In this document: positions 5,857 to 54,678 of the stretch, one piece after another | Position numbering within the stretch: the first letter of the stretch is position 1 | Layout: each line of letters starts with the position of its first letter | Source of the DNA: Bacillota bacterium | GTDB lineage: Bacteria; Bacillota_I; Bacilli_A; RF39; UBA660 | Assembly (NCBI GenBank): GCA_015059425.1 | Contig: SVAM01000009.1 | Location: forward strand, 3,543 to 67,542 | Reading direction: 5' to 3' | DNA length: 64,000 bases | Program-made: the position numbers and the translations under genes | The notes under the pieces: model-generated | Told to the model about the DNA's origin: nothing | The model's database searches: none | Seen by the model: the letters and a program-made list of their open reading frames with translations, nothing else

Positions 5857-5993
5857 TTGGCAAAAAGAGGTTTAATATAAAAATAATAATTAATCAAACT
5901 AAAAATATGTACACAGGTATTACTTAGTACATATTTTATTTTTTGATATCAATCTAATATTAAAAGTATTAACGATATTAAAAAGTAATATCT

Positions 5994-6020
5994 AAAAGGA
6001 ACGAACTAGTTCCTTTTTTA
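5994..6020 (+). terminator. intrinsic terminator
   Basis: Hairpin aaggaac-gaacta-gttcctt followed by ttttaa. Confidence 0.6.
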
Positions 6021-6092
6021 ATAATTTTTAATTTTTTATGGTTTATAATAGTAAGAATTTTTAGTATAATATAAAAGAAATGAGGCTATAAT

Positions 6093-6902
6093 ATGAATCC
6101 GATAATGATAAATCTATTTGGTATAGAAATTAAATGGTACTCTCTTTTAATATTAATAGGTATTATATTAGGAATGTTATTAGTAATAAAAGAATCAAAA
6201 AAATTTAACATAGCTAAAGAAACAATATTTGATTTATGTTTTTATGCAGTTATATTGGGTATTTTAGGTGCAAGACTTTATTATGTATTATTTAATATAT
6301 CATATTATAAATACAACATATCTGAAATATTTGCTATATGGAATGGTGGTTTAGCTATTCATGGTGGTATAATAACCGGAGCCATAACAATTATTTTATA
6401 TTGTAAAAAGAAAAATTTAAATTTCATAAAAATATTTGACATAATAGTACCAGCTTTAATTTTAGCGCAAGCTATAGGTAGATGGGGAAACTTCTTTAAT
6501 AGTGAAGCCCATGGCTTTGCCACTACATACACATTTTTAAAGGATTTATACATACCAGAATTTATAATTAAAGGCATGAATATTGGTGGAGTTTATTATT
6601 TGCCAACATTCTATATAGAATCTTTATGGTGTTTATTAGGATTTATAGTGCTTTTAATTATAAGAAGATTTAAATATATTAAAATAGGAACAATTACAAG
6701 TATATATGTTATATGGTATAGTATTGGAAGATTTTTTATTGAAGCCTGGAGAACAGATTCGTTAATGTTAGGAGGCTTTAAAGTAGCGCAAATAGTTTCT
6801 ATCGCATTAATAATGGGTGCAATAATATATTTAATATATATAAGTAGAAAAGGTAAATATGAAGTCTTATATAATGATATAAATAAAGGTAGAGTGATCT
6901 AA
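6093..6902 (+). CDS. lgt: prolipoprotein diacylglyceryl transferase
   Basis: 269 aa polytopic membrane protein with the Lgt signature GRWGNFFNSEAHG. Confidence 0.9.
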   Translation: MNPIMINLFGIEIKWYSLLILIGIILGMLLVIKESKKFNIAKETIFDLCFYAVILGILGARLYYVLFNISYYKYNISEIFAIWNGGLAIHGGIITGAITIILYCKKKNLNFIKIFDIIVPALILAQAIGRWGNFFNSEAHGFATTYTFLKDLYIPEFIIKGMNIGGVYYLPTFYIESLWCLLGFIVLLIIRRFKYIKIGTITSIYVIWYSIGRFFIEAWRTDSLMLGGFKVAQIVSIALIMGAIIYLIYISRKGKYEVLYNDINKGRVI

Positions 6903-10616: not shown

Positions 10617-12371
10617 ATGAAGAGAAGTATTATAAAATCATTATTCTTTATATTTGTCTTTTTTTGTCTAACTATGCATGTTTCTGCCAGTTCAAAATAC
10701 GTTGTATTACAAGATGCGGTAAATATAAGAAGTGGCCCTGGGACATCTTATCAAGTACATACTGTTGCTAAAATCGGCAGTAAATATTACTTAAAGAATG
10801 AAAATTTAAATAATATTGGAGATACTGACTGTACGCTTGGCTGGTATGAAATAAACTTTAATGGTTCTAGTGCTTATGTATGTAGTGAATACGTTAAAGT
10901 AAATGATTATAATGTTATAGATAACGTAGAACCTCAAAATGCTTGTGAAATAGAATTAAAAAGCAAAGGATTTACAAGTTCCTATTTTGTGCCTTTATGC
11001 AAATTAAAAGAGAAATATCCTGAATGGAATTTTGTTCCTATAATGACAGGATTAGATTTTAATGTCGTAGTAACACAAGAAAGTAAATGTGGAAAAAGTT
11101 ATGTTGAAACAAATGATCCAAATTATATAGACTCTAGTTGCAAAAGTGTGTATTCTCCAACGAGTATTTGGAAACCAGCCTCTACTGGTGCAGTTAAATA
11201 CTATATAGATCCAAGAAATTTCTTAGATGAAAAATCAATATTTATGTTTGAAACATTATCATATGTAAATGAATTAGAGAGTGTCTATAGTACAGCCATA
11301 GAAGCAGTATTAAAAAAGGCAGCTTTCTATTCTTATCATGCCAATATAGGAAATAATTTAGGTGATATAATTAATAGTGTTGGAAAAAGTTTAAATGTAA
11401 GCCCAATATTTACAGCATCAAGAATTTATCAAGAAATAGGAGCTAGTACCAATTCTTATGATTTATATAGTGGAGTATATCCAGGATATGAAGGATATTA
11501 TAATTTCTATAATTACGGTGTAAGTGATTCTTGTGCACAAGTAAGTGTAGCAGTATGTGGATTAGAATACGCTAAATCAAAAAACTGGTATGGCTTAGAA
11601 GCAGCAATAAATGCCGGAGTAAAAAGTATAAGTGAAGGTTATATAAATGTTGGTCAAAATACCAGATACTTACAAAAGTTTAATATAGCACCATTCGATA
11701 TAAATAAACTTTATACCCATCAATATATGACTAATATAAGGGCGCCTTATGGCGAAGCATCTACTGCATATAATTCCTATAGCAAAAGTGAATCGTTAAA
11801 TAATAATTTTACATTCTCAATTCCAGTATTTGAAAATATGCCAGCATTTACTGAATTACCAAATGACAATGAAGATAACAATAGTAGTGGAGCAGTAGAT
11901 AATGAACAAAATAAGGAACCAAACGTTGTGGATATAGCGCCTAAAACTGTTATAACTACCGCTGGTTACAAACACTCTAATAATAAAATTTTAGGAATTA
12001 AACCAGAAACTAATGCGGAAGCAATAAAAAGTAGTTTAGAAAGTGTAAGTGGTAATAGTTCGGTAATAATTAAAAATTCTAAAGATGAAGAAGTATCAAA
12101 TGATACAAAAATAGGTACGGGTTATAAAATAACAATAAAAGGAAGTACTGAAGAAACATTTGAAGTAGTAATATATGGTGATGTTTCTGGTGATGGTAAC
12201 ATTGGCCCTTTAGATTTATTATTAGTTCGAAGAGAATTATTAAAAACTGAAAATTTAAGTGGTTCATATGAGTTAGCTGCGGATCCAAATAAAGATAATA
12301 ATATAACCGCATTGGACTTATTATTAGTTCAAAGGCATATATTAAAAGCAGAAAGTATTGAACAGGGATAA
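10617..12371 (+). CDS. secreted SH3b-domain peptidoglycan hydrolase-like protein with C-terminal type-I dockerin
   Basis: Signal peptide, SH3b-like (YVVLQDAVNIRSGPGTSYQ), a glucosaminidase-like region (FTASRIYQEIGAST), and duplicated dockerin Ca-binding segments (GDVSGDGNIGPLDLLLVRRELL / ADPNKDNNITALDLLLVQRHIL). Confidence 0.65.
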   Translation: MKRSIIKSLFFIFVFFCLTMHVSASSKYVVLQDAVNIRSGPGTSYQVHTVAKIGSKYYLKNENLNNIGDTDCTLGWYEINFNGSSAYVCSEYVKVNDYNVIDNVEPQNACEIELKSKGFTSSYFVPLCKLKEKYPEWNFVPIMTGLDFNVVVTQESKCGKSYVETNDPNYIDSSCKSVYSPTSIWKPASTGAVKYYIDPRNFLDEKSIFMFETLSYVNELESVYSTAIEAVLKKAAFYSYHANIGNNLGDIINSVGKSLNVSPIFTASRIYQEIGASTNSYDLYSGVYPGYEGYYNFYNYGVSDSCAQVSVAVCGLEYAKSKNWYGLEAAINAGVKSISEGYINVGQNTRYLQKFNIAPFDINKLYTHQYMTNIRAPYGEASTAYNSYSKSESLNNNFTFSIPVFENMPAFTELPNDNEDNNSSGAVDNEQNKEPNVVDIAPKTVITTAGYKHSNNKILGIKPETNAEAIKSSLESVSGNSSVIIKNSKDEEVSNDTKIGTGYKITIKGSTEETFEVVIYGDVSGDGNIGPLDLLLVRRELLKTENLSGSYELAADPNKDNNITALDLLLVQRHILKAESIEQG

Positions 12372-14007: not shown

Positions 14008-15993
14008 ATGGAATTAAGTGATATAAAAGGAGTAGGACCCAAACTATTAAAAAGTTTAAATAACTTAAATATAAATACAATAGATGATTTATTATCATAT
14101 TATCCATATAGATATGAAATATTTGAACCATTAAATTTAACAGACGATTATAATGGTGAGCGAATTGCTATTAACGCAACAATTGAATCTTTACCAACAG
14201 TAGCATTCATCAAAAAGAACTTTAATAGATTACAATTTAGAGCTATTCATAACAATAAGATAATGCAAGTAGTAATATTTAATAGAGCATTTATGAAGCA
14301 ACATCTAACTATTAATAAAACTATAACTTTAGTAGGTAAATATGATAGTAAAAAAAATACATTTACATGTGATGATATAAAGTTAACTCCTATAACTAAA
14401 AAAGAAATAATTCCTATATATCACATTAATAAAAATATAAAGAATAATGAACTAAGAAAAATATATGAAAGTTTATTTTCTAACAAACTTGAAGTAAGTA
14501 AATATATACCAGATGAATATTTAGAAAAGTATAAGTTTTTAGATAAATTAGAAGCTTTAAAAAAGATACATATGCCAACTAATTATAATGATATAAAAAG
14601 TGCTAGTCTTTATTTAAAGTATGAAGAGTTATTCTTATTTTTATTTAAAATAGCATATATGAAAAAAGGGAATGATAATATATATAAAACACCAAAAGAG
14701 TTTAATGATAATGATATAAACGAATTTATTAGTACACTACCATTTACTTTAACAGATAGTCAAAGTGATGCCTTAAATTTAATATTAGAAGATTTAAAAA
14801 GTAATAAAAAAATGAATAGATTAGTTTTAGGAGATGTTGGTAGTGGTAAAACAATAGTAAGTTTTATTTCTATGTATGCATCATTCTTATCAGGCTACCA
14901 AAGTGTTTTAATGGCCCCTACAGAGGTTTTAGCGCGTCAACACTATGAAAGTGCTTTAAATTACTTTAAAGGCTTTAAAATGAATATTGGACTACTTGTA
15001 GGTAGTATGACTAAAAAAGAAAAAGACATAGTAAAAGAAAAACTTAAAAATAAAGAAATAGATATACTTATAGGAACACATGCGATTATTGAAGAAAGTG
15101 TAGTATTTAATAAATTAGGATTAGTTATAACAGATGAACAACATAGATTTGGTGTTAAACAAAGAGAAATATTAAAAAGTAAAGGTGAGATTCCAGATGC
15201 ATTATATATGAGTGCTACACCTATACCTAGAAGTTATGCTTTAACTTTATATGGTGATTTAGATGTATCTTTTATTACGCATAAACCAGGTGGTAGAAAA
15301 GAAATAGCAACCAAGATAAAAAAATATACAGCGTTAAAAGATGTTTTAACTCATGTATTAGAAGAAATAAAAAATAATCATCAAGTATATGTAGTAGCAA
15401 GTCTAATAGATGATAACGAAGAATTAGATTTAAAAAGTGTTGAAACATTAAAAGAAAAGTTTAATATAGCATTTAATAATAAAATACCTATTGAAATATT
15501 ACACGGTAAATTAAAACAAAAAGAAAAAGATGAAGTAATGACTAGATTTAAAAACAATGAGACTAAAATACTTATATCAACAACGGTAATAGAAGTGGGA
15601 GTAGATGTTAAGAATGCTACTATAATGGTTATATTTGATGCAGATAGATTTGGTTTAGCAACACTTCATCAGTTGCGTGGTAGAGTAGGAAGAAATTCAC
15701 TTGAAAGTTATTGTTATTTAATATGTGATGAAGAAAAAGAACGTTTAAAAGTATTAGAAGAAAGTAACGATGGTTTTTATATTTCTGAAAAAGATTTAGA
15801 ATTAAGAGGCGAAGGAGATCTATTTGGTATAAGACAAAGTGGGGTTAAAACATTTAAAATAGCAAACTTAAAAACAGATCTAAAAATCATGATGCAAGCT
15901 AAAAAAGATACAGAAGAATATATAAATCAAGAAAATTATAAAAATAACAAATATTACACAAAAATAATAAATGAATTAGATAGTTTAAATTAA
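14008..15993 (+). CDS. recG: ATP-dependent DNA helicase RecG
   Basis: 661 aa. Wedge domain, Walker A GDVGSGKT, DEQH box and helicase C motifs (QLRGRVGR). Confidence 0.93.
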   Translation: MELSDIKGVGPKLLKSLNNLNINTIDDLLSYYPYRYEIFEPLNLTDDYNGERIAINATIESLPTVAFIKKNFNRLQFRAIHNNKIMQVVIFNRAFMKQHLTINKTITLVGKYDSKKNTFTCDDIKLTPITKKEIIPIYHINKNIKNNELRKIYESLFSNKLEVSKYIPDEYLEKYKFLDKLEALKKIHMPTNYNDIKSASLYLKYEELFLFLFKIAYMKKGNDNIYKTPKEFNDNDINEFISTLPFTLTDSQSDALNLILEDLKSNKKMNRLVLGDVGSGKTIVSFISMYASFLSGYQSVLMAPTEVLARQHYESALNYFKGFKMNIGLLVGSMTKKEKDIVKEKLKNKEIDILIGTHAIIEESVVFNKLGLVITDEQHRFGVKQREILKSKGEIPDALYMSATPIPRSYALTLYGDLDVSFITHKPGGRKEIATKIKKYTALKDVLTHVLEEIKNNHQVYVVASLIDDNEELDLKSVETLKEKFNIAFNNKIPIEILHGKLKQKEKDEVMTRFKNNETKILISTTVIEVGVDVKNATIMVIFDADRFGLATLHQLRGRVGRNSLESYCYLICDEEKERLKVLEESNDGFYISEKDLELRGEGDLFGIRQSGVKTFKIANLKTDLKIMMQAKKDTEEYINQENYKNNKYYTKIINELDSLN

Positions 15994-18617: not shown

Positions 18618-18813
18618 CCCCCCCGGAGGGTAGAAGTGTGAAAATAAAATCTTTTTCTCAACCCACAGCCTACCTACATTCACACAATTATAAATTTTCC
18701 GTGAGTTTTTTGGAAAATGGTATACCAATTGGATACTTAGATAAGAATAGTATAGATTAGTAAAGTATAGTATAGAATATATATATTTCATGTTGATGAA
18801 AAAAAGAATAAGT

Positions 18814-19143
18814 TTAACACTCATACTCAATTCTTTTAATTTCTAAAGGATTTTCATTAGTAATAAGTAATGCATATTTAACACGTAATAACTTATAGAA
18901 TTCTGCTTTTACCTTTTCAGAATCTTCTCCGAAATAATTAATTACATCTTTAGCAGAATTATAATGTTGTAGAAAAGAACCTTTATACATAGAATGCGTA
19001 TAATAGGAATTAGCTATATAATAGGCAATAACTTCAGGTATTATATAATTTTCTAAATATTCGTTATAATTATCTGCAAAAGGTTTAAGTAGTTTTTCAA
19101 ATTCCTCGTTACTAATATCGCCATTAATATTTTCTCTAATCAT
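18814..19143 (-). CDS. hypothetical protein
   Basis: ORF with ggaggtg RBS; no recognisable motifs. Divergent from the 19379 operon. Confidence 0.45.
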   Translation of the reverse strand: MIRENINGDISNEEFEKLLKPFADNYNEYLENYIIPEVIAYYIANSYYTHSMYKGSFLQHYNSAKDVINYFGEDSEKVKAEFYKLLRVKYALLITNENPLEIKRIEYEC

Positions 19144-19326
19144 ATACACCTCCAGTTGATTGTATTAATCACTTAATTATTCTATTATTGCAAGATTTAA
19201 TTTGGAAATTAAAAAAATTTATAATAAAAGTGATATAAAACTATGAAATATATAATAAAAATTTATTTTTTAAACAGCAATTTATACAAAATGAAGTACT
19301 ACATTTTAAAAATATAGTACAAATAT

Positions 19327-19355
19327 TTGACAAATATGTTGAAAAGATGTAATAT
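19327..19355 (+). promoter_or_regulatory. near-consensus sigma-A promoter of the 4-gene operon
   Basis: TTGACA (19327-19332) - 17 nt - TAATAT (19350-19355). RBS aaagaggg precedes the ATG at 19379. Confidence 0.6.
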
Positions 19356-19378
19356 AGTCGTAGAAAGAGGGCGTTATT

Positions 19379-19597
19379 ATGAATGAAAAAGAAGAAAGGT
19401 TTATAAGGATTGCTGAAAAAAGGACAAATAAAATATTGGAACAGATAAGATTGTTAAGTAATTGTTCAAATAAAAATAATTATTCTTATGATGATCAACA
19501 AGTTGATAAAATTTTTAAAGCTATTGAGAAAGAGTTAGATTTGGCTAAAAAGAAATATATAATGAATAAAGATAAAAATAAATTTAGTTTGAGGTAA
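19379..19597 (+). CDS. small hypothetical protein (72 aa), gene 1 of candidate system
   Basis: Helical, charged. Its stop lies 4 nt before the next start. Confidence 0.5.
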   Translation: MNEKEERFIRIAEKRTNKILEQIRLLSNCSNKNNYSYDDQQVDKIFKAIEKELDLAKKKYIMNKDKNKFSLR

Positions 19598-19601
19598 TGA
19601 T

Positions 19602-20234
19602 ATGAGTGAAATTGATAAATTAAGAAAAATAAAAGAAATAGATTATGACAGATATGTTGATATAAGTAGTTTAGAAAAAATGGCTGCTTATGCTATCAAA
19701 TATTTAGAAGACAATCAAGTGAACACAACTTGGACGAATGTAGTTATAGCTACATATAGTTTGTTTCCAAGAAGATTTGCAATTAGTGAAGATTTTTTAG
19801 ATTTTCCAAATGCTGAAAGAATTAGTAGAACTTTAATGCATCTGGTTCCACCAAAAGGGAGAAACTATGCGATAGGTAGTAGCAAAATTGATTATGCTTT
19901 AACACCACTTGGAAGGGAAGTTGCTAATGAAGTTGAAATTATTATTAATAGAGAGGCTACAATAAAAAACAGAAAACAAGAAGTTATTTCTTCAATTAAA
20001 ACTACACCAATGACAACTTACACTGATGTTAAGAATTCATCAGAATTTAAACAATATTGTGGTAATAATGAATACTCTGTAGATATGATATGGACTTTAT
20101 ACAAAGTAATACCATTTACACAACAAGATAAAATATTAAAAAAATTAGTTAGTGCTTTAAGATTTTCACAGGAATGTGGAGATGTTAAATGTGAAGAATT
20201 TATTAGTAAAATGATAAATTCAATTCAAAAGTAG
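19602..20234 (+). CDS. hypothetical protein (210 aa), gene 2 of candidate system
   Basis: RBS gaggt; no recognisable motifs. Confidence 0.55.
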   Translation: MSEIDKLRKIKEIDYDRYVDISSLEKMAAYAIKYLEDNQVNTTWTNVVIATYSLFPRRFAISEDFLDFPNAERISRTLMHLVPPKGRNYAIGSSKIDYALTPLGREVANEVEIIINREATIKNRKQEVISSIKTTPMTTYTDVKNSSEFKQYCGNNEYSVDMIWTLYKVIPFTQQDKILKKLVSALRFSQECGDVKCEEFISKMINSIQK

Positions 20235-20247
20235 GGAAGTGATTTAT

Positions 20248-22407
20248 ATGACAGATGTACAATCTTTTATTATTGAAGATTCAGCCAGAAAAAAACTCAT
20301 GGATCAAAAAAATATTTTTGGTCAAAATTTTGTAGAAATGCTTGCTGAAATTATTACAAATGCAGATGATAGCTATTCTAGAATAGAAGATAATACTGGA
20401 GATTATTCTCCTAAAAAAATTGATATCTATTTTGACAGAAGAAAAGACGAATTTACTGTAGTTGATTTTGCTGAAGGTATAGGTGAAAATGAATTAATAA
20501 AAATTTTCAGAAAATATGCAGATGATACTTCTAATACGAATGCAACAAATAAGGTGCGTGGCATGTTTGGTAGAGGTGCCACAGACGTTATGATAGAATC
20601 ATCATTAGTTGGTAAAGAAAATTTTTTGATATCGTTTAGGGATGATGAATCCACAAGACTTGTGTTTAAGTTTGACGAAAACAATAATAAAACATTTACC
20701 AGAGACACATTGACTGAAGAAGAAATAAGATTTTTTAGAAATGAATATAACATTACCGAAAATGGAACGATTGTAAGATTTGGTACAGGAAGAAAATATC
20801 CAAAAGATGTTATTGGTGCAATTGAAGATTATTATATGCTAAGATTTATTTTTGATAATGAAAACAGAAAAATAATATTTCATGATTTAAATGAAGAAAC
20901 AGAAAAACAATTACAAAATGATATGTCTTATTTTGATTATTGTGATGTATTGTGTGAGGAATCATTTGATATTAAATATAAAAATTATAAGTTAAAAGCT
21001 AATTTAAAAATAGTAAATAATCCGAACAAAATATCAAATCATTATATTTTGATATATGATGAAAAAAAAGCTGTTTATGATGATTCTAATTTTAACAGAG
21101 CCACAGAAGCAGGAATAGATAAGATTGAAGGTAGACTTGAGATAATTAATTTAACAACATTTGCTAAACAAATGATGAATGAATTTGGAGAAACAATAAT
21201 AACTCCAACTCGTGATGGATTTGAAACGAAAAATGATTTCTATAAAGACTTGAAAAATAAAGTAGACAAATATATTATTAATGCCTGTGCTATGGTATCA
21301 CAATCAACAGAAAAATCTCAATCAGGTTTAAGAGATAGAAAAGAATGGCGCAATTTCTTTAAAGATATTAATAAATATTTTAAAGATGAATTAGATACAA
21401 TTATTGATGGTGGTGAGGGCGATACAATAAAAGAACCTCCAGAAGAAGGTATTAAATTTGCTAGAAACAGTATTCCTGTTAAAATTGGTAAACATTACTT
21501 AATTAAATTATTGATTAATCCTAATTTAATTACTCTAGGAAGTTTAATTCAAATCCAACATGAAGGTGAATATATAACTCTAGCTCAAGATAAAATTATA
21601 TTTACTAATAATGGAGGAGAAGAAGTCCCTTCGGTATTAGTTGATATTCTCGGCTTAGAAAATACACCGGAACAACAATTTATTACTGCACATTGTGGAA
21701 TTTACGAAGCTAATTTATATTATGATGTTAGAGATGAAGAAGTTCACTTGCCAGCATATGGTTTTGATTTTTTTCCAAATGAATTAAGAAAAAAACCAGA
21801 GGTTACTAGAACAGCTACAATGTATGTTGATACTAACAAATTTGAAATAGGATCTATTATTGAAATTGAAAACAATAATAGTGAAATTGAATTAGAATAT
21901 GAGAACATCGTTATAAGCACGGAACAATTAGTAAATGATAATATAGCTAAAATAAGTCTTAATATTTCTGGTGGTATATTAGGTAAAACCTATTATATTA
22001 GTGCTATGTTAAATGCTAGAAAAATTGAATTTCCAATTATAGTACAGGAGAAAGATGATACAACAAATAATAAAACAGGTATTATTAATGATATACTTCC
22101 AAAAGAATCCCCGGTTAACTATGTACAAAGTTACTACGATAATGATAGAAATATAATCATAGTATCAAATAACGTTGCTAATAAACAACAAATCTCAACT
22201 TGGTTAGAAAAGAAAGAATATGCTACTATTGCAGAAAAATTTGCATTCTATAGTATTTTATCAGAAGAGCTTGCTAGAATAATGATAAGAGAAAAAAGTA
22301 GAAAAGATAAAATTGCAATATCATCAGATCCAGATGAGTTTTTCAGAGTAATAAGTGAAGAAAAAGATAAAATGTATAAGATGCTTTTAAAATCTTTTGA
22401 GGAATAG
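20248..22407 (+). CDS. GHKL (HSP90/sacsin/MORC-type) ATPase-domain protein, 719 aa, gene 3 of candidate system
   Basis: Bergerat-fold boxes: N-box EIITNADDSY, G1 DFAEGIG, G2 GMFGRGATD. The C-terminal ~500 aa are uncharacterised. Confidence 0.6.
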   Translation: MTDVQSFIIEDSARKKLMDQKNIFGQNFVEMLAEIITNADDSYSRIEDNTGDYSPKKIDIYFDRRKDEFTVVDFAEGIGENELIKIFRKYADDTSNTNATNKVRGMFGRGATDVMIESSLVGKENFLISFRDDESTRLVFKFDENNNKTFTRDTLTEEEIRFFRNEYNITENGTIVRFGTGRKYPKDVIGAIEDYYMLRFIFDNENRKIIFHDLNEETEKQLQNDMSYFDYCDVLCEESFDIKYKNYKLKANLKIVNNPNKISNHYILIYDEKKAVYDDSNFNRATEAGIDKIEGRLEIINLTTFAKQMMNEFGETIITPTRDGFETKNDFYKDLKNKVDKYIINACAMVSQSTEKSQSGLRDRKEWRNFFKDINKYFKDELDTIIDGGEGDTIKEPPEEGIKFARNSIPVKIGKHYLIKLLINPNLITLGSLIQIQHEGEYITLAQDKIIFTNNGGEEVPSVLVDILGLENTPEQQFITAHCGIYEANLYYDVRDEEVHLPAYGFDFFPNELRKKPEVTRTATMYVDTNKFEIGSIIEIENNNSEIELEYENIVISTEQLVNDNIAKISLNISGGILGKTYYISAMLNARKIEFPIIVQEKDDTTNNKTGIINDILPKESPVNYVQSYYDNDRNIIIVSNNVANKQQISTWLEKKEYATIAEKFAFYSILSEELARIMIREKSRKDKIAISSDPDEFFRVISEEKDKMYKMLLKSFEE

Positions 22408-22411
22408 TAAA

Positions 22412-24175
22412 ATGGTTTTCTATTATTATAATCTAGATACTCTTGTTGAAAGTTATTTTGATAATGTAAGAATTATTAATATTTTACATAATAATGGGAT
22501 TAAAAATTTATATGATTTGTTTGTGTGTGATATTAATGAAGTATTAAACTCAAATGCATGCGGAAATAAAAGTAAGAGTATTATAGAAGAAACTTTTTAT
22601 TATTTACAAGCATTAGCAAGAAATAAATTTGATACTACAAAGATATATGAAAAATATGATTATTTATTAAATGATATGATTATTGTTTCAAGAAATTCAG
22701 ATAACGGAGAATTAAAAACAGAAGTATTATTTAAAAGATTCCTAGAAATATATGAGTTAGAAAAATTATCCCCCAAAGATTTTGTTAATTCAAATATGAT
22801 AATTCAATTTCTTGAGGTTTATGAGGGTAGTGCACCGTTAGATTATATTAGTCAAGAAACATCAAAATTTAAAAATTATAAAGAAGCTTACGCTTATTTA
22901 AATGATATTATTAATAATAATAAAGCCGATAAAGCAAATATTTTTAAAAGATATAATGGTATTTTCGTTGAAAGAGAAACATTAGAAGAAATAGGTAAAG
23001 ATTTTGGTGTAACAAGAGAAAGAATAAGACAAATTAATAAACGTACTACAGAAAAAATATATAACGCACTAGATACTATATATAGAAAAATAAAAAATAC
23101 ATTTGATAAAGCTTATTACATCCCTTTATCAAATCCAATGTTAAGAATATATTGTGAATATTTATATGAAAGAGGTTTTTTAAAACTAGAAAGAATTTTC
23201 GATGAAAAGGTTTATGTTAGAAACGAAGAATTAATAAATATAGTTAATAAAATAGAAATAGCTCTTGAAGAAAATAATGTATATAGTGATGAAATGGATA
23301 GAAATGTTTTAAAACTCTTTGAAAAAAAATATTTAATTAAGGATGGTAAAATCCTAAAGAATAATACGTTAATTAATTATGTTCCAATGGTTCTAGATGA
23401 AATAGGAAGAGCAGTAAATTTAAATAGTGAAAATGATGTTAATCTGATTTATGACATTTTAGAGCGAGAATATAGTGTAACCACAGAATATAAGGATTCA
23501 AGAAATATTGAGAGAGTATTAACAGATACAAGTATATTAATTGATTCAAGGACTTATATTTCCGAAAAATATCAAAAGAAAGCAGATATGACTGAAGTTT
23601 TTGAATACATAGAAAAAAGTGAAGTTACAAATGCTCAAATTATTTATTCAACTTTCATAAAATTATGGAATAATATTGATATATATAGTCATGTGGGTGT
23701 ATATGGATATTTAAAATATTTTTATCCTAATAAATATAATTATGCAGGAAGAAGTTTCCTTATAAATGTAATTGGCAAAAGTACAACTTGGGGGGAGATT
23801 GTAATTGATATGATTAAAGAAAAAAAGGCCCCAGTAACGTTTAACTCGGTTAATGAATTATATCCGGCATTAAATAATATGATATGGATAAATCTTGAAG
23901 CAAACTTTACTGATTTAATATTTTGGGGAGATAATTCATATTATTGCAATAGTATGTTAAAACTTAGTCCTGAAGATATGAGTTTTATTACTATTTATAT
24001 TTATAACAATGGAACAGTTACAGATAAAGATTTATATACTTACATATTAAATAATAAGGAGTATATAATTCACGATAATTATTTACATAGCGAAAAACAA
24101 TTATTAAAATTTATCAAAGTTAAGTTTGATGGGGTTATTAATTATAATTCTGACTTGAGAACTTATTATATATAA
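22412..24175 (+). CDS. protein with RNAP alpha-CTD-like HhH and sigma-70 region-4-like HTH, gene 4 of candidate system
   Basis: N-terminal VRIINILHNNGIKNLYDLFVCDINEVL (alpha-CTD-like). Mid-protein LEEIGKDFGVTRERIRQINKRTTEKIYNAL (sigma70 r4 HTH). Start overlaps the upstream stop. Confidence 0.55.
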   Translation: MVFYYYNLDTLVESYFDNVRIINILHNNGIKNLYDLFVCDINEVLNSNACGNKSKSIIEETFYYLQALARNKFDTTKIYEKYDYLLNDMIIVSRNSDNGELKTEVLFKRFLEIYELEKLSPKDFVNSNMIIQFLEVYEGSAPLDYISQETSKFKNYKEAYAYLNDIINNNKADKANIFKRYNGIFVERETLEEIGKDFGVTRERIRQINKRTTEKIYNALDTIYRKIKNTFDKAYYIPLSNPMLRIYCEYLYERGFLKLERIFDEKVYVRNEELINIVNKIEIALEENNVYSDEMDRNVLKLFEKKYLIKDGKILKNNTLINYVPMVLDEIGRAVNLNSENDVNLIYDILEREYSVTTEYKDSRNIERVLTDTSILIDSRTYISEKYQKKADMTEVFEYIEKSEVTNAQIIYSTFIKLWNNIDIYSHVGVYGYLKYFYPNKYNYAGRSFLINVIGKSTTWGEIVIDMIKEKKAPVTFNSVNELYPALNNMIWINLEANFTDLIFWGDNSYYCNSMLKLSPEDMSFITIYIYNNGTVTDKDLYTYILNNKEYIIHDNYLHSEKQLLKFIKVKFDGVINYNSDLRTYYI

Positions 24176-24190
24176 AAAAGAAGATTTCTA

Positions 24191-25429
24191 TTAATCTTCT
24201 TTTTTTATTATATTTTCAATCTCTTCTCCAATTTTTTCAATAATACCTACAACTAATGCATTACCCATCATAAAATTTCTCTTTTTTTGAGTCATTCCTG
24301 TGTTTGTCCAATTATCAGGAAATCCGTTTATTCTTTCACATTCAATAGGTGTTAATAGTCTTGGCTTTTTTGTTCTTAAATCTTCAATAACATGAGTTGT
24401 TCGGCTAACGCCACCTTCGCTAGTAAGCATTGTTCTAGCTGGAGCATCTAGGTTGTCAGGGAAAGGCATTGCCCCTTCACTATAGTAATAAGGCTCGCCA
24501 TTAGGTTTAACTCTTGGTATTTTTTTGCTTCCTTTTAAAAATATAAATTTTTCGATTTGAACATCAGATAAGAAATATTTTTCTTCAACTTCATTTTCTT
24601 CTCTAATTTTTCTTAATGGATATACTAAATTATAATCAGCTCTTGTTTTTACTGTATATATACCGCCATCAGCCATAATACCTGCATTATAGAATTCGCA
24701 TTTAAACATGTTACTAACTTCTATTAGATCCTTATATTCTTTTATACTTGATTTAGTTATTGCTTCATAAGCATCTTTGATAGGGAATTGTTTTACAAAT
24801 AACCCTTTTTTAAAAATGACATCTCTATCATTTAAGTTTCTCATTTCTTTATAGTAATTGGTAGATTTGTGATATGCAAAAATATAGGTTCTTCTTCTTT
24901 TTTGTGGCAGACCATATTCACCAGCATTTATAACTCTCCATTGAACATCATAGCCGTTTTCATAGAAACTCCTTAATATCATTCCGAAATCTCTTCCCCT
25001 TTGTTTTGCGGGAGAAAGTAATAATCTATCTACGTTTTCTAACAAAACAAATGGAGGTTGCTTAATAGCTAGGATTTCTTCGATAGCCCACCAAAGGACC
25101 CCTTTTTTTCCTTCAATACCTTTGCTATTTGATAATGTTTGCGCTACTGAATAATCTTGGCATGGAAATCCACCAACTAATAAAGTGTGGTCTGGAATTT
25201 CTTTTTTATCAACTTCAAATATATCGACATTGCTAACATCTTTAAAACCAAATCTTGTTCCGTAACAAATATATGCATCTTGAGTTTTAGTAGCAGGTTC
25301 CCATTGATTTGCCCAAACAAATTTCCAATTTCCGTTTTCTTCAACTTTATTATCTATTAATGTAACCTTATTTAATCCGCATCTAAAACCACCAACACCA
25401 GCAAATAGTTCTACACATGTTTTTTTCAT
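24191..25429 (-). CDS. DNA (cytosine-5)-methyltransferase, M.Sau3AI-like
   Basis: 412 aa. Motif I FAGVGGF, motif IV GGFPCQDYS, ENV motif. Same length as M.Sau3AI and adjacent to the Sau3AI-like endonuclease. Confidence 0.85.
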   Translation of the reverse strand: MKKTCVELFAGVGGFRCGLNKVTLIDNKVEENGNWKFVWANQWEPATKTQDAYICYGTRFGFKDVSNVDIFEVDKKEIPDHTLLVGGFPCQDYSVAQTLSNSKGIEGKKGVLWWAIEEILAIKQPPFVLLENVDRLLLSPAKQRGRDFGMILRSFYENGYDVQWRVINAGEYGLPQKRRRTYIFAYHKSTNYYKEMRNLNDRDVIFKKGLFVKQFPIKDAYEAITKSSIKEYKDLIEVSNMFKCEFYNAGIMADGGIYTVKTRADYNLVYPLRKIREENEVEEKYFLSDVQIEKFIFLKGSKKIPRVKPNGEPYYYSEGAMPFPDNLDAPARTMLTSEGGVSRTTHVIEDLRTKKPRLLTPIECERINGFPDNWTNTGMTQKKRNFMMGNALVVGIIEKIGEEIENIIKKED

Positions 25430-25484
25430 TTATATACCTCCTATTTATTGTGAAAAATCGTTATATATATTATAATATAGTTAG

Positions 25485-25541
25485 TTGTAAAGATCAACCA
25501 TGCAATTAGTATTATAACTTAATTTTGTTAAAAGATCAACT
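25485..25541. promoter_or_regulatory. divergent R-M promoter region with two direct repeats containing GATC
   Basis: ttgtAAAGATCAACc (25485-25499) and ttgttAAAAGATCAACt (25526-25541). A third GATC lies at 25583, near the RBS. Confidence 0.4.
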
Positions 25542-25600
25542 TTTCTTAATAATATTTTACTATAAATTTGAAATTAAAACAAGATCGAAAGGAGAATTTT

Positions 25601-26989
25601 GTGAAAAAAGGTAGACATTATTTGGTAGATGAAATTGCTTTTATAGCTCAAACTGCAATTGGAAAATCCTTTAGAGAAATTAGGGATGCAGATATAGTAA
25701 CGCTTGAAGATGATAAAGTTACTAAAGGATCTTTGGGTGGAATAGTGGAGGAGGCATTATTCGGAATTGAAGCTAACGGTGATTCAGCACCAGATTTTAT
25801 TGATGCTGGTGTAGAATTAAAAGTAACTCCTTATAAAAAAAATAAAAATAACACTCTTTCTGCAAAAGAAAGATTAGTATTAAATATAATCGATTACATG
25901 ACTGAATATAAGAATGAATTTTTTTCGAGTCATTTCTGGTATAAAAATAATCTATTAGAAATAATATGGTATCTTCATGAAGATGGTAAAGACAAACTTG
26001 ATTTAAAAATTACTAATGAAATTTTAATGGATTTATCTGAAAGCGAAGACATTAAGCAAATAGAACAAGACTGGTATACGGTTATAACCAAAATAAAAGA
26101 AGGTAAGGCTCATGAAATATCAGAGGGAGATACAATGTATCTTGGGGCTTGTACTAAAGGCGAAAATTCCCTATCATATCGCAGACAACCATTTAGTAAT
26201 ATGATGGCAATGCAAAGAGCATTTTGCTTTAAACAAAGCTATATGACGCAGTTGGTTAGAAAATATATTGGAGATTATTCTAATGTTGAGAAAATATTAA
26301 CAAATACTGAGCAAACATTTGATGAGTTTGTAAATAATGTAGTTAATAAATATAAGGGTAAAACTCAAAGTGAATTAATGGAATTATTTAATATTGAATC
26401 ATCCGCTAAAAATATAAACTCTATTATTGTTAGTCGAATGTTTGGGGTTAAAGGTAGCTTAAATGAAACAGAAGAATTTTTAAAAGCTAACATTATCCCA
26501 AAGACTGTTAGGATAGAAGAAAATGGAAGAATCAAAGAGTCAATGTCTTTTCCAGCTTTTAAGTATATTGAGATAATAAATCAAGAATGGGAAACATCAG
26601 AATTAAGGGAAAGTTTAGAATCGACTAAATATTTATTTTTTGTTTTTAGAATGGATAATAATGAATATGTATTTAAAGGAATTAAATTGTGGAATATGCC
26701 GGAATTAGTAATAGATAATGAAGTTCAAATTATGTGGCAAAAAACCGTTGATATTATAAAGAGTGGTAATATAGTGAAATCTATCACTAATGGTATTAGG
26801 GAAACTAATTTTCCAGGAGTTGCGCAAAATAAAGTGTGTCATGTTAGACCTCACGCAAGAGATGCACAAGATACATATCCATTACCAGTTGTTGATAAAT
26901 TAACTGGATTAACAGATTATACTAAACATTGTTTCTGGTTTAATAGGGGTTATTTAGAAGAAATATTAGAAGAGTATATTAATGAATAA
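25601..26989 (+). CDS. type II restriction endonuclease, Sau3AI family (GATC)
   Basis: GTG start after aaaggaga. Strong similarity recalled from R.Sau3AI: AGVELKVTPYKKNKNNTLSAKERLVLNIIDYM; EGKAHEISEGDTMYLGACTKGENSLSYRRQPFSNMMAMQRAFCFKQSYMTQLVRKYI. Duplicated MutH-like architecture. Confidence 0.8.
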   Translation: MKKGRHYLVDEIAFIAQTAIGKSFREIRDADIVTLEDDKVTKGSLGGIVEEALFGIEANGDSAPDFIDAGVELKVTPYKKNKNNTLSAKERLVLNIIDYMTEYKNEFFSSHFWYKNNLLEIIWYLHEDGKDKLDLKITNEILMDLSESEDIKQIEQDWYTVITKIKEGKAHEISEGDTMYLGACTKGENSLSYRRQPFSNMMAMQRAFCFKQSYMTQLVRKYIGDYSNVEKILTNTEQTFDEFVNNVVNKYKGKTQSELMELFNIESSAKNINSIIVSRMFGVKGSLNETEEFLKANIIPKTVRIEENGRIKESMSFPAFKYIEIINQEWETSELRESLESTKYLFFVFRMDNNEYVFKGIKLWNMPELVIDNEVQIMWQKTVDIIKSGNIVKSITNGIRETNFPGVAQNKVCHVRPHARDAQDTYPLPVVDKLTGLTDYTKHCFWFNRGYLEEILEEYINE

Positions 26990-27102
26990 AATACATTAAT
27001 AAGCTGTAAAACTGGATAAAATTATGATATAATATAAATATGAGAATAGAGCATAATTTCATTTTTAATAATGGAATATGCTTTTTTTGATTGGAGGTAA
27101 CT

Positions 27103-28584
27103 ATGAATAAATTAACTAGAGTTAACGAATATTTAAATGTTTCTGAGAAAGATTTAGAAGAATTGGGTGTTTATAATGGATATGCTAATATAGATTCTGA
27201 ATTATATATTAATCCAAAATTATTAATAGATTGTGAAATAGATGAATTTAAAAATTCTTATAATAAAATTACCAATCATTTTGAAAAAATAATTGAACTT
27301 TTAAGAAAAAGTGAAAAAGCATCAAAAGATGATTTGATGTGGAATCTTGCATTAAAGTTATTTTGTTTTCCTGAACCTAATGGGGTTGCACTGGGTACAT
27401 CTGGATTATCAATAAATGGAAACGGTTTAAGCGGAGAAACAGCAGAGAGTGCATTATTAAAATTAAAAGAAATGATTGATAACGACATAGATGATCCACA
27501 AATTTTTGGGATGTTGGCGCTTATTCAAAAGAATATAGGCGTTGATCGTATAAGTGATATGATAAGCAATATAATATATGATGATTTATTACTTTATACC
27601 GAAAATGTTATACAAAAATTAAATATTACATCTTGTGTTGAAGTAGAATATAATAAAAAACAATATAAAATAAAAATTAGAGAAAATGGTTCAAATTTAA
27701 TACTTATTCCAAAGAAAATATTAAGTAATATTCCACCTTTTGTTGATTATCATTCTATCCAAGATATAATAGATGAAAATGTAAAAATAAAACAACAAAT
27801 TTACGAGATGTTTTATGAGATAAATAAGAAATTAAAAAAGAAAAAAGTTTCTCAAGTAAACATAAAAGATTTAGATAAAGACCAAGTTTATGAGATTATT
27901 AATAAATTTAATTTACATAGAATAATTTTAGATGCAAGTTCTAATATTAATGTAGAACCTTATGATTTTGAAACAGATGTTGAGGGCATTCATAAACCGA
28001 TAGAAAAGATAACAAATTTAATTGCAAAAAAGGAACAACAAGTTTTAGGTAATATTTTAAAAATGAGAAATGAAAATTTTTCTGAGTTAGTAGAAGATTT
28101 AATTAACAATTATAAGTTTATTATTGAAAATAAAGGATTAAATCAAGACTTATATCATAAAGTTCCTACAAAAACAGGTAAATATTATTATAGACCTAAA
28201 CATGAAGGTGTATCTCATCGCTTATTCATTGCTACATTAGAAAATACAAAACAAATTTTTAACTATGATTATACTTACGAACCTAAATCTTCAAACGGAG
28301 AAGTAGATTTTAGATTTTATCGTAATGGTGAAGTTATTGTAGTTGAATTTAAACTAAGTACTAACAAGTTAAAAGATGGATATGATAAACAATTAGTTGA
28401 ATATATGAAAAGAGAAAAGAGTGATAAAGGGTATTATGTGATAATTAAAGTAAAAGATGATAACGCAATTGATAATTTTCTAAAAAATACAAAAATCACA
28501 AATAATAGACCTATTGTAGTAGTAGATGGATTATTAAAATCTAGTCCATCACATTTGCACTCTGAAGAATCGGAGGAAATGTAA
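27103..28584 (+). CDS. hypothetical protein with C-terminal PD-(D/E)xK nuclease-like motif
   Basis: RBS ggaggt. C-terminal GEVDFRFYRNGEVIVVEFKL (D...ExK) followed by QLVEYMK. N-terminal 350 aa unassigned. Confidence 0.5.
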   Translation: MNKLTRVNEYLNVSEKDLEELGVYNGYANIDSELYINPKLLIDCEIDEFKNSYNKITNHFEKIIELLRKSEKASKDDLMWNLALKLFCFPEPNGVALGTSGLSINGNGLSGETAESALLKLKEMIDNDIDDPQIFGMLALIQKNIGVDRISDMISNIIYDDLLLYTENVIQKLNITSCVEVEYNKKQYKIKIRENGSNLILIPKKILSNIPPFVDYHSIQDIIDENVKIKQQIYEMFYEINKKLKKKKVSQVNIKDLDKDQVYEIINKFNLHRIILDASSNINVEPYDFETDVEGIHKPIEKITNLIAKKEQQVLGNILKMRNENFSELVEDLINNYKFIIENKGLNQDLYHKVPTKTGKYYYRPKHEGVSHRLFIATLENTKQIFNYDYTYEPKSSNGEVDFRFYRNGEVIVVEFKLSTNKLKDGYDKQLVEYMKREKSDKGYYVIIKVKDDNAIDNFLKNTKITNNRPIVVVDGLLKSSPSHLHSEESEEM

Positions 28585-29353: not shown

Positions 29354-30202
29354 ATGTCTGAGAGAGAATTAGATTCAAGTATAAACAATTATATTGAAAC
29401 AGAAACACCTAAAAACTATGTAAAACAATTAGCATGGGATATGGCTATTGGACTTCAAGAAGTTGATAACTTAAAACCTTCTAAGTATTTAGAAAAATTG
29501 TTACAAGAAAACGTAACAGGTGAAAAAACAATTTATGAAGTTGAACATGAATTAAAGCAATATTATGTAGAAAAAGATAAAACAGATAAAACAATTCAAG
29601 ATGAATTTGAATGTGATTTAGTTTCTACTAGAATAGTTCAATTATTGAGTATTGATAATTTTGAACTATCAGTAGACTATATAAAATATATTCATGAATA
29701 TTTATTTAAAGATATTTATGAATTTGCAGGTGAATTTAGAAAAATAGATTTTTCTAAACATGAAAGAATATTAAATAATGATTCAGTTGCATACGGAGAT
29801 TGTAAATTATTAGAACAATCATTAGATTATGATATATCATTAGAAAAAACTAAAAATTATAGTGAAATGAACATAGTTGATGTAATTAATAATATAACTA
29901 ATTTTACTTCAAATATATGGCAAATACATCCGTTTAGAGAAGGCAATACTAGAACTACTGCATTATTTATAGAAAAGTATTTAATATCACTTGGATATGA
30001 TGTAGATAACACTATGTTCAAAGAAAAATCTGTATATTATAGAAATGCATTAGTAAGAAGTAATTATTTTAATAATTATTTAAATATAAAACAAGATAAT
30101 AGTTTCTTAATTAAATTTTATGAAAATTTATTATTAGGTAAAAATAATAATTTACATTCAAGAGATTTAATTATAGAAGAATTATTTAATAAAGAAAATT
30201 AA
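29354..30202 (+). CDS. Fic/DOC-family protein
   Basis: Fic motif HPFREGNTRTTAL. Confidence 0.8.
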   Translation: MSERELDSSINNYIETETPKNYVKQLAWDMAIGLQEVDNLKPSKYLEKLLQENVTGEKTIYEVEHELKQYYVEKDKTDKTIQDEFECDLVSTRIVQLLSIDNFELSVDYIKYIHEYLFKDIYEFAGEFRKIDFSKHERILNNDSVAYGDCKLLEQSLDYDISLEKTKNYSEMNIVDVINNITNFTSNIWQIHPFREGNTRTTALFIEKYLISLGYDVDNTMFKEKSVYYRNALVRSNYFNNYLNIKQDNSFLIKFYENLLLGKNNNLHSRDLIIEELFNKEN

Positions 30203-54604: not shown

Positions 54605-54678
54605 GCGGATGTAGTTTAATGGTAGAGCTTCAGCCTTCCAAGCTGATAACGTGGGTTCGATTCCCATCATCCGCTCCA
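54605..54678 (+). tRNA. tRNA-Gly (anticodon UCC)
   Basis: Cloverleaf GCGGATG...anticodon loop CTTCCAA...GTTCGATTC...CATCCGCTCCA. Confidence 0.93.

Follow-up and report, generated by a model that had tools for sequence, protein, structure and literature searches.

A two-gene GHKL ATPase core with optional DNA-binding accessories, found beside restriction–modification genes: an unnamed, paraMORC-like candidate defence module

What is the function of a bacterial operon that combines a GHKL ATPase of the Hsp90/MORC type with a protein carrying RNA polymerase-like DNA-binding domains and two further proteins of no obvious family, all of it directly beside a restriction–modification (R-M) system? 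The question is raised by four genes, here termed g1 to g4, in a 64,000-nt stretch of a Bacillota bacterium genome (contig SVAM01000009.1, positions 3,543 to 67,542 of the forward strand), which was analysed as a whole and is referred to below as the window. An earlier inspection of the letters (the sequence-only reading) had put the operon forward as a candidate novel defence system. Our analysis indicates that the genes probably constitute an undescribed immune module. The explanation that we favour, with somewhat less than even confidence, is an unnamed paraMORC-like module working in DNA-methylation-based (R-M-coupled) defence. The four plus-strand open reading frames (ORFs) announced for positions 19379–24175, separated by 4, 13 and 4 nt, were all recovered; the lengths given for the first three (72, 210 and 719 aa) were right, while the fourth encodes 587 aa and not 588.

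19379..19597, + strand: g1, 72 aa, basic helical leader protein
19602..20234, + strand: g2, 210 aa, orphan protein, partner gene immediately 5′ of g3
20248..22407, + strand: g3, 719 aa from its ATG, GHKL ATPase
20332..20847, + strand: Bergerat ATP-binding domain of g3 (about aa 29–200)
22412..24175, + strand: g4, 587 aa, non-enzymatic predicted DNA-binding protein
22433..22606, + strand: RNA polymerase alpha-subunit C-terminal domain (alphaCTD)-like helix-hairpin-helix domain of g4 (about aa 8–65)
22889..23071, + strand: sigma-70 region 4-like helix-turn-helix (HTH) of g4 (about aa 160–220)

These are real, co-transcribed genes, and their conservation in more than 80 loci from many phyla places them far beyond chance. 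On inspection of the sequence, a Shine-Dalgarno-like motif precedes each of the four starts, and the one serving g4 (GAGGA) coincides in part with the stop codon of g3, a sign that the two genes are coupled in translation. An alternative in-frame GTG upstream of g3, at 20239, would extend that protein to 722 aa. The peptide motifs quoted in the sequence-only reading—EIITNADDSY, DFAEGIG, GMFGRGATD and GVTRERIRQINKRTTEKIYNAL—are all present in the translations.

The central component of the operon is g3, and its assignment to the Hsp90/MORC-type GHKL ATPases holds, both by its match to Pfam HATPase_c_3 (E=4e-6; score 27.3 against a gathering score of 25) and by the invariance of its ATP-site residues. 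In an alignment of 27 homologues, with identities down to 18%, the N box (E34, N38, D40), the G1 box (D73, A75, G77) and the G2 box (R104, G108, G110, D113) are invariant, as are G173 and an R322-(D)-G324 motif located some 150 residues beyond. Structure predictions were run on g3 and g4. A Bergerat fold and an Hsp90/MutL/MORC-like middle domain, a putative transducer, occupy approximately aa 1–350 of g3, followed by immunoglobulin (Ig)-like beta-sandwiches at about 400–640 and a C-terminal helical hairpin at about 660–718. Taken together, these features show an intact ATP site within a clamp-type GHKL architecture. As the counterpart of R380 in Hsp90, K337 in GyrB and K307 in MutL, R322 of g3 may sense the gamma-phosphate, and the helical tail could provide for constitutive dimerisation. 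The Hsp90 likeness lies at the level of the fold only, as g3 did not match Pfam PF00183 (HSP90) at E<=1; a sequence search of the PDB likewise gave nothing at E<=1. Neither a nuclease fold nor a domain of the RecB-like, TIR or HNH type was found in g3. The closest genome match is a rumen metagenome-assembled genome (MAG), hRUG910, with 69% identity over g3.

To define the conserved unit, the ORFs of 91 loci (L numbers below) were surveyed by iterative hidden Markov model (HMM) searches. One key observation derived from this census is that g3 is present in 85 of the loci and has g2 immediately 5′ of it in 76, while g1 was detected in 34 and a separate g4 gene only in the window, L001, L002/L003, L008, L011 and the P0031 contig, together with a degraded copy in L009. 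The persistent adjacency of g2 and g3 and the sporadic occurrence of the other two genes identify g2–g3 as the conserved unit, with g1 and the DNA-binding accessories as optional additions; the four-gene operon itself does not stand as an evolutionary unit. When the neighbourhood of g3 and g4 was compared across genomes, as the sequence-only reading had proposed, a defence-type context was seen in different phyla, but g4 is seldom a separate gene near g3. Word-indexed searches returned 31 clusters for g3, 13 for g4 and 25 for g2, and an exhaustive profile search yielded 1,465 representative clusters at E<=1e-3, 653 of them at E<=1e-30. A scan of one genome per species located relatives in at least 244 species, nearly all of them MAGs. 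The family is widespread and sparse at the same time, extending over Clostridia, Mollicutes, Bacillales, Saccharibacteria and other members of the candidate phyla radiation (CPR), Chloroflexota, Acidobacteriota and Ignavibacteria in the bacteria, and Bathyarchaeia, Methanolobus and Micrarchaeota in the archaea. The members that we saw carry no informative name and match no curated family beyond generic ATPase and HTH domains. The obligatory neighbour, g2, has no match in Pfam, PADLOC or NCBIfam and nothing significant in a PDB profile search; its conserved motif, LFPxKF...PD..R.NR...G....GF.LT..G, may be winged-helix-like, and a profile comparison of g2 with g4 revealed no relationship.

How such an ATPase might find its DNA is suggested by g4, for which a structure model with a predicted local distance difference test score (pLDDT) of 90.5 was obtained. 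The profile of its N-terminal part had 1doq_A as best PDB match (E=3.5e-4), with alphaCTD chains making up about 50 of the top 60 matches, and its HTH matched Pfam Sigma70_r4 at E=1e-8; winged helices are present as well. The recognition helix, TRERIRQI, is identical in E. coli sigma70, where we take it to span residues 583–590 and to carry the residues that contact the −35 element. These matches show domains copied from RNA polymerase alphaCTD and from region 4 of sigmaA, as the sequence-only reading had assigned them, and its view that g4 is not a true sigma factor also proved sound, since sigma regions 2 and 3 are absent from the protein (Pfam, NCBIfam). A BFVD fold search with g4 gave sigma-factor-level matches only. 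By its domain content, g4 is a predicted non-enzymatic DNA binder. Moreover, the same type of domain is found fused to the ATPase. In CPR genomes, g3 reaches about 930 aa through a C-terminal extension composed of sigmaA region 4 followed by DnaA domain IV (L005 1209-4061; L037 8001-10820; L041, L042, L044, L045 and L050), the two parts matching PDB entries at E ~1e-9 and 2e-12, respectively, and the DnaA part keeping the DnaA-box-contact motif PRQ...RDHTTV. The g3 protein of L034 carries the sigma-4 part only, and P0026 represents another g3-HTH fusion. The fusion of g3 to a sigma-4-type HTH in CPR bacteria implies that the ATPase and such HTH domains act together. Three predicted DNA readers derived from initiation factors—sigma-4, alphaCTD-like and DnaA-IV—are recruited to ATPases of the g3 family, and the co-option of three such domains onto a GHKL clamp is unusual.

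The genes directly 3′ of g4 in the window are those of the Sau3AI-type R-M system noted in the sequence-only reading, here confirmed as a Dcm methylase with a two-domain MutH-like endonuclease:

24191..25429, − strand: C5-cytosine DNA methyltransferase of the Dcm type (Pfam DNA_methylase, E=1e-61)
25568..26989, + strand: restriction endonuclease of the Sau3AI/MutH family (Pfam MutH, E=7e-31, in two stretches)

Together with g1–g4, these genes form a six-gene block (~19376–26991) that the window has in common with L001, where the flanks differ, and with L096/L097, which additionally share one small upstream gene and have an integrase fragment and Fic genes nearby. The block was hence encountered in three unrelated genomic contexts. 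In at least eight loci of Clostridia and Mollicutes, the Dcm and Sau3AI/MutH pair accompanies g1–g3, and the linkage persists where g3 identity has dropped to 28–30%, with gene order and orientation shuffled. For a broader view, we took 76 non-redundant loci and collected the genes closest to the core, counting those that encode 100 aa or more and lie no farther than 1.5 kb from it. The leading Pfam families in the resulting set of 140 genes were as follows:

N6_N4_Mtase: 14 of the 140 nearest genes
DNA_methylase (Dcm): 5 of the 140
MutH: 4 of the 140
PIN: 3 of the 140
N6_Mtase: 2 of the 140

The remaining families are scattered, and PADLOC agrees with this Pfam census. Methyltransferases of the two main clusters account for 19 of the 140 adjacent genes against 9 of 589 genes lying 2–8 kb away at the same loci (odds ratio 10, p=1e-8, phylogeny ignored). 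Additionally, the genes are in several cases arranged as in an operon, sometimes with translational coupling: in L076 and L081, the stop codon of the methyltransferase gene and the start codon of g2 overlap, a methyltransferase gene lies immediately 3′ of g3 in L077 and L078, and L065 has the order g1, PDC-S05, methyltransferase, g2, g3. One contig displays g4-HsdR-HsdS-HsdM with abutting genes, and in L005 a gene for a type IIG restriction-methylase (E=1e-129) comes after the fused g3, such that type I, II and IIG R-M systems are all found beside the module. The recurrence of the block in three contexts and the leading place of methyltransferases among the neighbours family-wide indicate that the adjoining R-M system probably belongs to the functional unit and is more than a neighbour.

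The leader gene, g1, connects the operon to other ATPases. Its product (consensus ERFKRLAxxRTNxxLxxIRLLGNCSNxxNYxY) has no domain in Pfam, NCBIfam or PADLOC; PDB profile searches with g1 and g2 returned only designed helical repeats, reflecting low-complexity helices, and insignificant matches, and the one family match of g1 is to phrog_35258, of unknown function (E=1.6e-9). The earlier statement that g1 and g2 lack recognisable domains is borne out, neither having any above the Pfam threshold. Relatives of g1 were found in phage and plasmid collections at HMM E-values of 1e-22 to 1e-33. A temperate C. innocuum phage, NatCom_9291 (L091 1907-2131), has one beside an integrase, heading the genes PDC-M33 A/B/C; on a Priestia megaterium plasmid (L100 4992-5222), a relative heads the PDC-M33 trio and a MutH/Sau3AI-family endonuclease follows. 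On an Agrobacterium plasmid (L099 5022-5219), the relative precedes genes for a 621-aa protein, an 'ATP-binding protein' and a UvrD helicase, and on a Deinococcus plasmid (L098 4974-5204) it adjoins Dcm and Vsr. By eye, Bergerat motifs can be read in PDC-M33A (REICQNSLDA, RISDFNTTGL, GAFGIGKNA) and in the Agrobacterium protein (EFFKNADES, GNFGIGAK), although the g3 HMM produced no significant match to either. The recurring combination of a g1-like leader with a defence-type GHKL ATPase speaks for g1 as a co-factor of these ATPases or as their regulator, and the operon of the window appears on these motifs to belong to a wider set of GHKL defence candidates. Isolated g1-like genes are found in cyanophages as well (S-H34, S-CRES3 and others). 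The g1 alignment is too variable for pattern scanning, and a scan with the single protein gave three weak viral loci only.

Two further elements frame the operon in the window:

19327..19355, + strand: promoter-like site TTGACA-17-TAATAT, 24 nt 5′ of the g1 start
24176..24207, no strand assigned: AT-rich inverted repeat AAAAAGAAGAT-N8-ATCTTCTTTTT, between the convergent stops of g4 and dcm

The promoter-like site exists exactly as the sequence-only reading had described it, but such sites are no more frequent than expected by chance: a consensus scan of 7 kb in this 25% GC region counted 62, against 54 +/- 7 in shuffles, which leaves the promoter plausible by position only. With 25.5% G+C in the window, the operon does not stand out in composition. 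Reading of the inverted repeat reveals 11-bp arms, an 8-nt loop and flanking runs of A and T, making it a possible bidirectional terminator; a terminator scan, which demands G+C-rich stems, made no call there. Just 5′ of the operon, on the opposite strand, lies a 111-aa ORF (18814-19149, −). It is covered by the tblastx synteny block shared with L096/L097 (window 18619-27068) and not by the block that the window has in common with L001; in L096, the corresponding position is occupied by a gene for 108 aa, likewise on the minus strand.

Further defence-type genes occur in the surroundings of the family. Besides R-M genes, the neighbours include GmrSD, DrmE, NERD, a PLD-helicase, a PbeA-like helicase, a DpdB/DndB-like protein, PDC-S05/S07/S23 and MazE-PIN. 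Where g1 is missing, the upstream gene varies, being a MazE-PIN pair, a methyltransferase or something else. A PIN gene lies directly 5′ of g2, or of a methyltransferase-g2-g3 array, in L049, L053, L064, L068, L076 and L081, four of which also have a MazE/AbrB-type antitoxin gene; the PIN gene extends into the start of g2 in two of the six loci, L053 and L068. The PIN protein may be an alternative accessory or effector in such loci. The sequence-only reading had placed the operon in a phage-remnant island, yet no integrase or phage structural gene was found in the window flanks that were scanned. A Fic/DOC-family gene is present at 29354-30202 (+) in the window and two occur in L096 (3783-4706 and 17219-18277), where a 107-aa phage-integrase fragment lies upstream; together they hint at a shared island.

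Other observations were made along the way. Just 3′ of the Sau3AI-like gene, and outside the six-gene block shared with L001 and L096, a 497-aa ORF (27091-28584, +) has a weak Cas4-like PD-(D/E)XK match over residues 361–440 (PADLOC Cas4_II, E=1.6e-5) and a weak BspA_v match. L004 encodes a second, distinct GHKL protein of about 570 aa (4815-6542; HATPase_c_3 and Hypoth_Ymh), whose gene is flanked by those of a Dcm methylase and an EcoO109I-type endonuclease and lies directly 5′ of g1-g2-g3, with DrmE_C and NERD genes downstream. In L009 (8001-13594), the module is degraded, g3 being split into 465 + 237 aa and g4 into three pieces, with g1 undetected; the position of this copy beside an intact GmrSD gene suggests turnover of the system within defence islands. 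The window further contains a dockerin type I + SH3 protein (10617-12371), recG immediately 5′ of the island (14008-15993) and a tRNA-Gly(TCC) gene (54605-54678). With the low G+C content, these features would suit an anaerobic Bacillota of gut or rumen whose DNA is AT-rich.

How, then, would a paraMORC-like module contribute to methylation-based defence? We propose that g4 (or the fused HTH domains) and g2 would tether g3 to DNA, and that ATP binding would dimerise the g3 N-domains and close the clamp on the DNA, as in MutL, MORC or GyrB. The closed clamp could then license or stimulate the partner endonuclease on unmethylated DNA, following the MutL-to-MutH logic, or, alternatively, block transcription and replication of the invader in a MORC-like manner. 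The methyltransferase would shield self DNA, and g1 would regulate or assist the GHKL protein as a co-factor. The idea of stimulation is drawn from co-inheritance with a MutH-family enzyme, which recalls the activation of MutH by MutL; a functional stimulation of the endonuclease by g3 in this style is purely hypothetical.

Several observations weigh against an R-M-coupled immune module. About 70% of the loci have no adjacent methyltransferase gene, so that the core may work by itself or with partners encoded elsewhere, and the neighbour counts lack phylogenetic independence. In many loci of CPR bacteria and archaea, the genes nearby are housekeeping ones (in CPR, for example, PolA, RuvB and tRNA synthetases). 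Domain and fold searches found no effector, nuclease or toxin, within g1–g4, and PDB profile searches gave no fold for g1 or g2. Further, g3 was not found in plasmid, phage or IMG/VR collections, which means that mobility is deduced from patchy phylogeny and block transfer only, and the immune role as such is inferred from sequence and gene context.

The scarcity of linked methyltransferases lends some weight to a different view, in which the g2–g3 core, whether or not g1 and g4 are present, would detect an infection and halt it unaided, be it through ATP-driven DNA compaction or silencing or through abortive infection by an activity not yet recognised, and the nearby R-M genes would reflect nothing more than island clustering and co-transfer. 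The heterogeneity of the defence genes around the core and the fact that PADLOC scores the related g1–GHKL operons (PDC-M33) as independent candidates both fit such autonomy. It is harder to reconcile with the ten-fold enrichment of methyltransferases immediately beside the core relative to 2–8 kb away at the same loci, with the stop/start overlaps involving methyltransferase and HsdR genes, with a Sau3AI linkage that has outlived the shuffling of gene order, and with the lack of any detected effector domain; we regard autonomous defence as a minority possibility, though one to be taken seriously. The absence of catalytic effector domains from all four proteins would equally suit a regulatory or non-immune role, either as an ATP-dependent switch for adjacent R-M or defence genes or as a nucleoid or mobile-element maintenance factor. 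The resemblance of g4, and by its motif alone of g2, to DNA binders is in keeping with this, as is the perfect TTGACA of the operon promoter, to which a sigma-4-like HTH could bind. GHKL/two-component-like regulators near R-M genes have been proposed (PMC8011034), and regulators of defence are known from positions upstream of various operons (PMC13373217). A conserved core of ~930 aa is large for a regulator, however, its position and orientation relative to the R-M genes vary (upstream, downstream or convergent), many loci have no adjacent target operon, and Ig-like domains and a clamp-type ATPase are atypical of transcription factors, all of which makes a regulatory role improbable.

The borrowed initiation-factor domains invite two more proposals. 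They could act as an integrated decoy, in which the copies of sigmaA-4, alphaCTD and DnaA-IV bait phage host-takeover proteins and so trigger the GHKL ATPase. This guard function is as doubtful as the regulatory one: DNA-contact residues are kept in the sigma-4 helix (TRERIRQI) and in DnaA-IV (PRQ...DHTTV), making DNA binding the more economical explanation, most family members have none of the three domains, and no downstream effector is known. In the host, region 4 of sigmaA reads the −35 element, alphaCTD the UP element and DnaA domain IV the DnaA box. A bolder and rather unlikely scenario would therefore have the immune system find invaders through these host DNA readers mounted on a MORC/MutL-like GHKL clamp, which would either silence promoter- or origin-like sites of unmethylated foreign DNA, with the methyltransferase marking self, or bait phage take-over proteins; g1 would then serve a larger superfamily of GHKL ATPases in defence as their specialised co-factor.

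The R-M-coupled, paraMORC-like reading bears important implications. In eukaryotes, MORC proteins and SMCHD1 clamp DNA that is foreign or methylated and thereby silence it. The prokaryotic paraMORC ATPases were predicted beside R-M genes as early as 2008, and their mechanism has remained essentially untested; the g2–g3 family offers a compact and tractable case, in which the partner protein is defined (g2) and several GHKL defence candidates are tied together by a common leader, g1. The natural fusions to sigma-4, alphaCTD-like and DnaA-IV domains act as Rosetta stones, leading to testable predictions on the DNA or the phage proteins that are recognised. Should restriction be potentiated by a MutL-to-MutH-like step, the logic of mismatch repair would be joined to innate immunity; should DNA be silenced without cutting, the module would be a prokaryotic counterpart of MORC-type epigenetic silencing.

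Finally, we compared the module with systems that already have a name. PADLOC and NCBIfam contain no named match, and literature searches found no described system with this gene set, in line with the sequence-only reading, which had recognised none; precedents do exist, namely paraMORC, MZA and PDC-M33. The PADLOC check that it had called for, applied to the proteins of the locus, named no system for g1–g3 and gave a local match of the g4 HTH to MzaA only. In the anti-phage system MZA (mzaABCDE), a large protein of the sigma-70 family, MzaA, shares a defence operon with a MutL-like GHKL ATPase, and MzaA is the best match of the g4 HTH in the defence library. We rejected this system because the match is local (NF041931, 31.4 bits against a cut-off of 800, residues 181–214; PADLOC MzaA, 23 bits) and no MzaB, MzaD or MzaE is found at the operon. 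Two other candidates were dismissed on architecture: CapK, a small anti-sigma-type kinase with a STAS partner (the CapK/CapS regulators), and the Shedu protein VcSduA, with its DUF4263 nuclease, have no counterpart in g1–g4.

PDC-M33, a PADLOC candidate, is closer in layout. It has a leader of the g1 family (E 1e-27 to 1e-33) and a first large protein with Bergerat N, G1 and G2 motifs, and it sits beside a prophage integrase or, on a plasmid, beside a MutH/Sau3AI-family endonuclease. The two systems nevertheless share only that unmodelled leader gene, as the A, B and C HMMs do not match g1–g4; PDC-M33 has no g2, and the g1–g4 operon has neither the DUF6339 protein nor M33B. As a direct homologue of g3, PDC-M33A was discarded (HMM E>0.06, hhalign probability 4%), the likeness being one of motif and fold. 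In comparison with MutL–MutH, there is no MutS here, g3 has no MutL C-terminal domain, the endonuclease is a two-domain restriction enzyme of the Sau3AI type, and the g2–g3 core is also paired with N4/N6, type I and type IIG systems. In the phage-defence cluster Ambrosia, an HSP90-like HATPase protein is encoded together with a methyltransferase and a nuclease (bioRxiv 10.1101/2025.09.30.679545); with the HEF_HK-type elements, it sets an experimental precedent for GHKL proteins of this kind being necessary for defence (bioRxiv 10.1101/2025.09.30.679545, PMC8011034). Ambrosia differs in having a response regulator, an XRE regulator and an HNH endonuclease, and both it and the HEF_HK/paraMORC-like two-component elements (PMC8011034) were set aside in view of the lack of HEF_HK, REC and HNH domains at the locus.

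The closest precedent is the group of GHKL 'paraMORC' ATPases predicted in R-M contexts in 2008 and thought to manipulate DNA in an ATP-driven manner alongside a nuclease (Iyer, Abhiman & Aravind, PMC2292703). The signatures that set paraMORC1–5 apart in the published descriptions (the ExxxH motif and the RecB-like, TIR or HxH C-terminal domains) are absent from g3, and the superfamily-II helicase linked to paraMORC systems has no equivalent in the six-gene block. The resemblance lies in an N-terminal GHKL domain of the HATPase_c_3 type with intact ATP motifs and a putative transducer/middle domain, in the patchy distribution of the g2–g3 family over bacteria and archaea, and in a neighbourhood of cytosine and adenine DNA methylases and restriction endonucleases, the R-M context that characterises the group. 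To this pattern, the present module adds an obligate g2, Ig-like domains, the g1 leader and the sigma-4, alphaCTD and DnaA-IV accessories.

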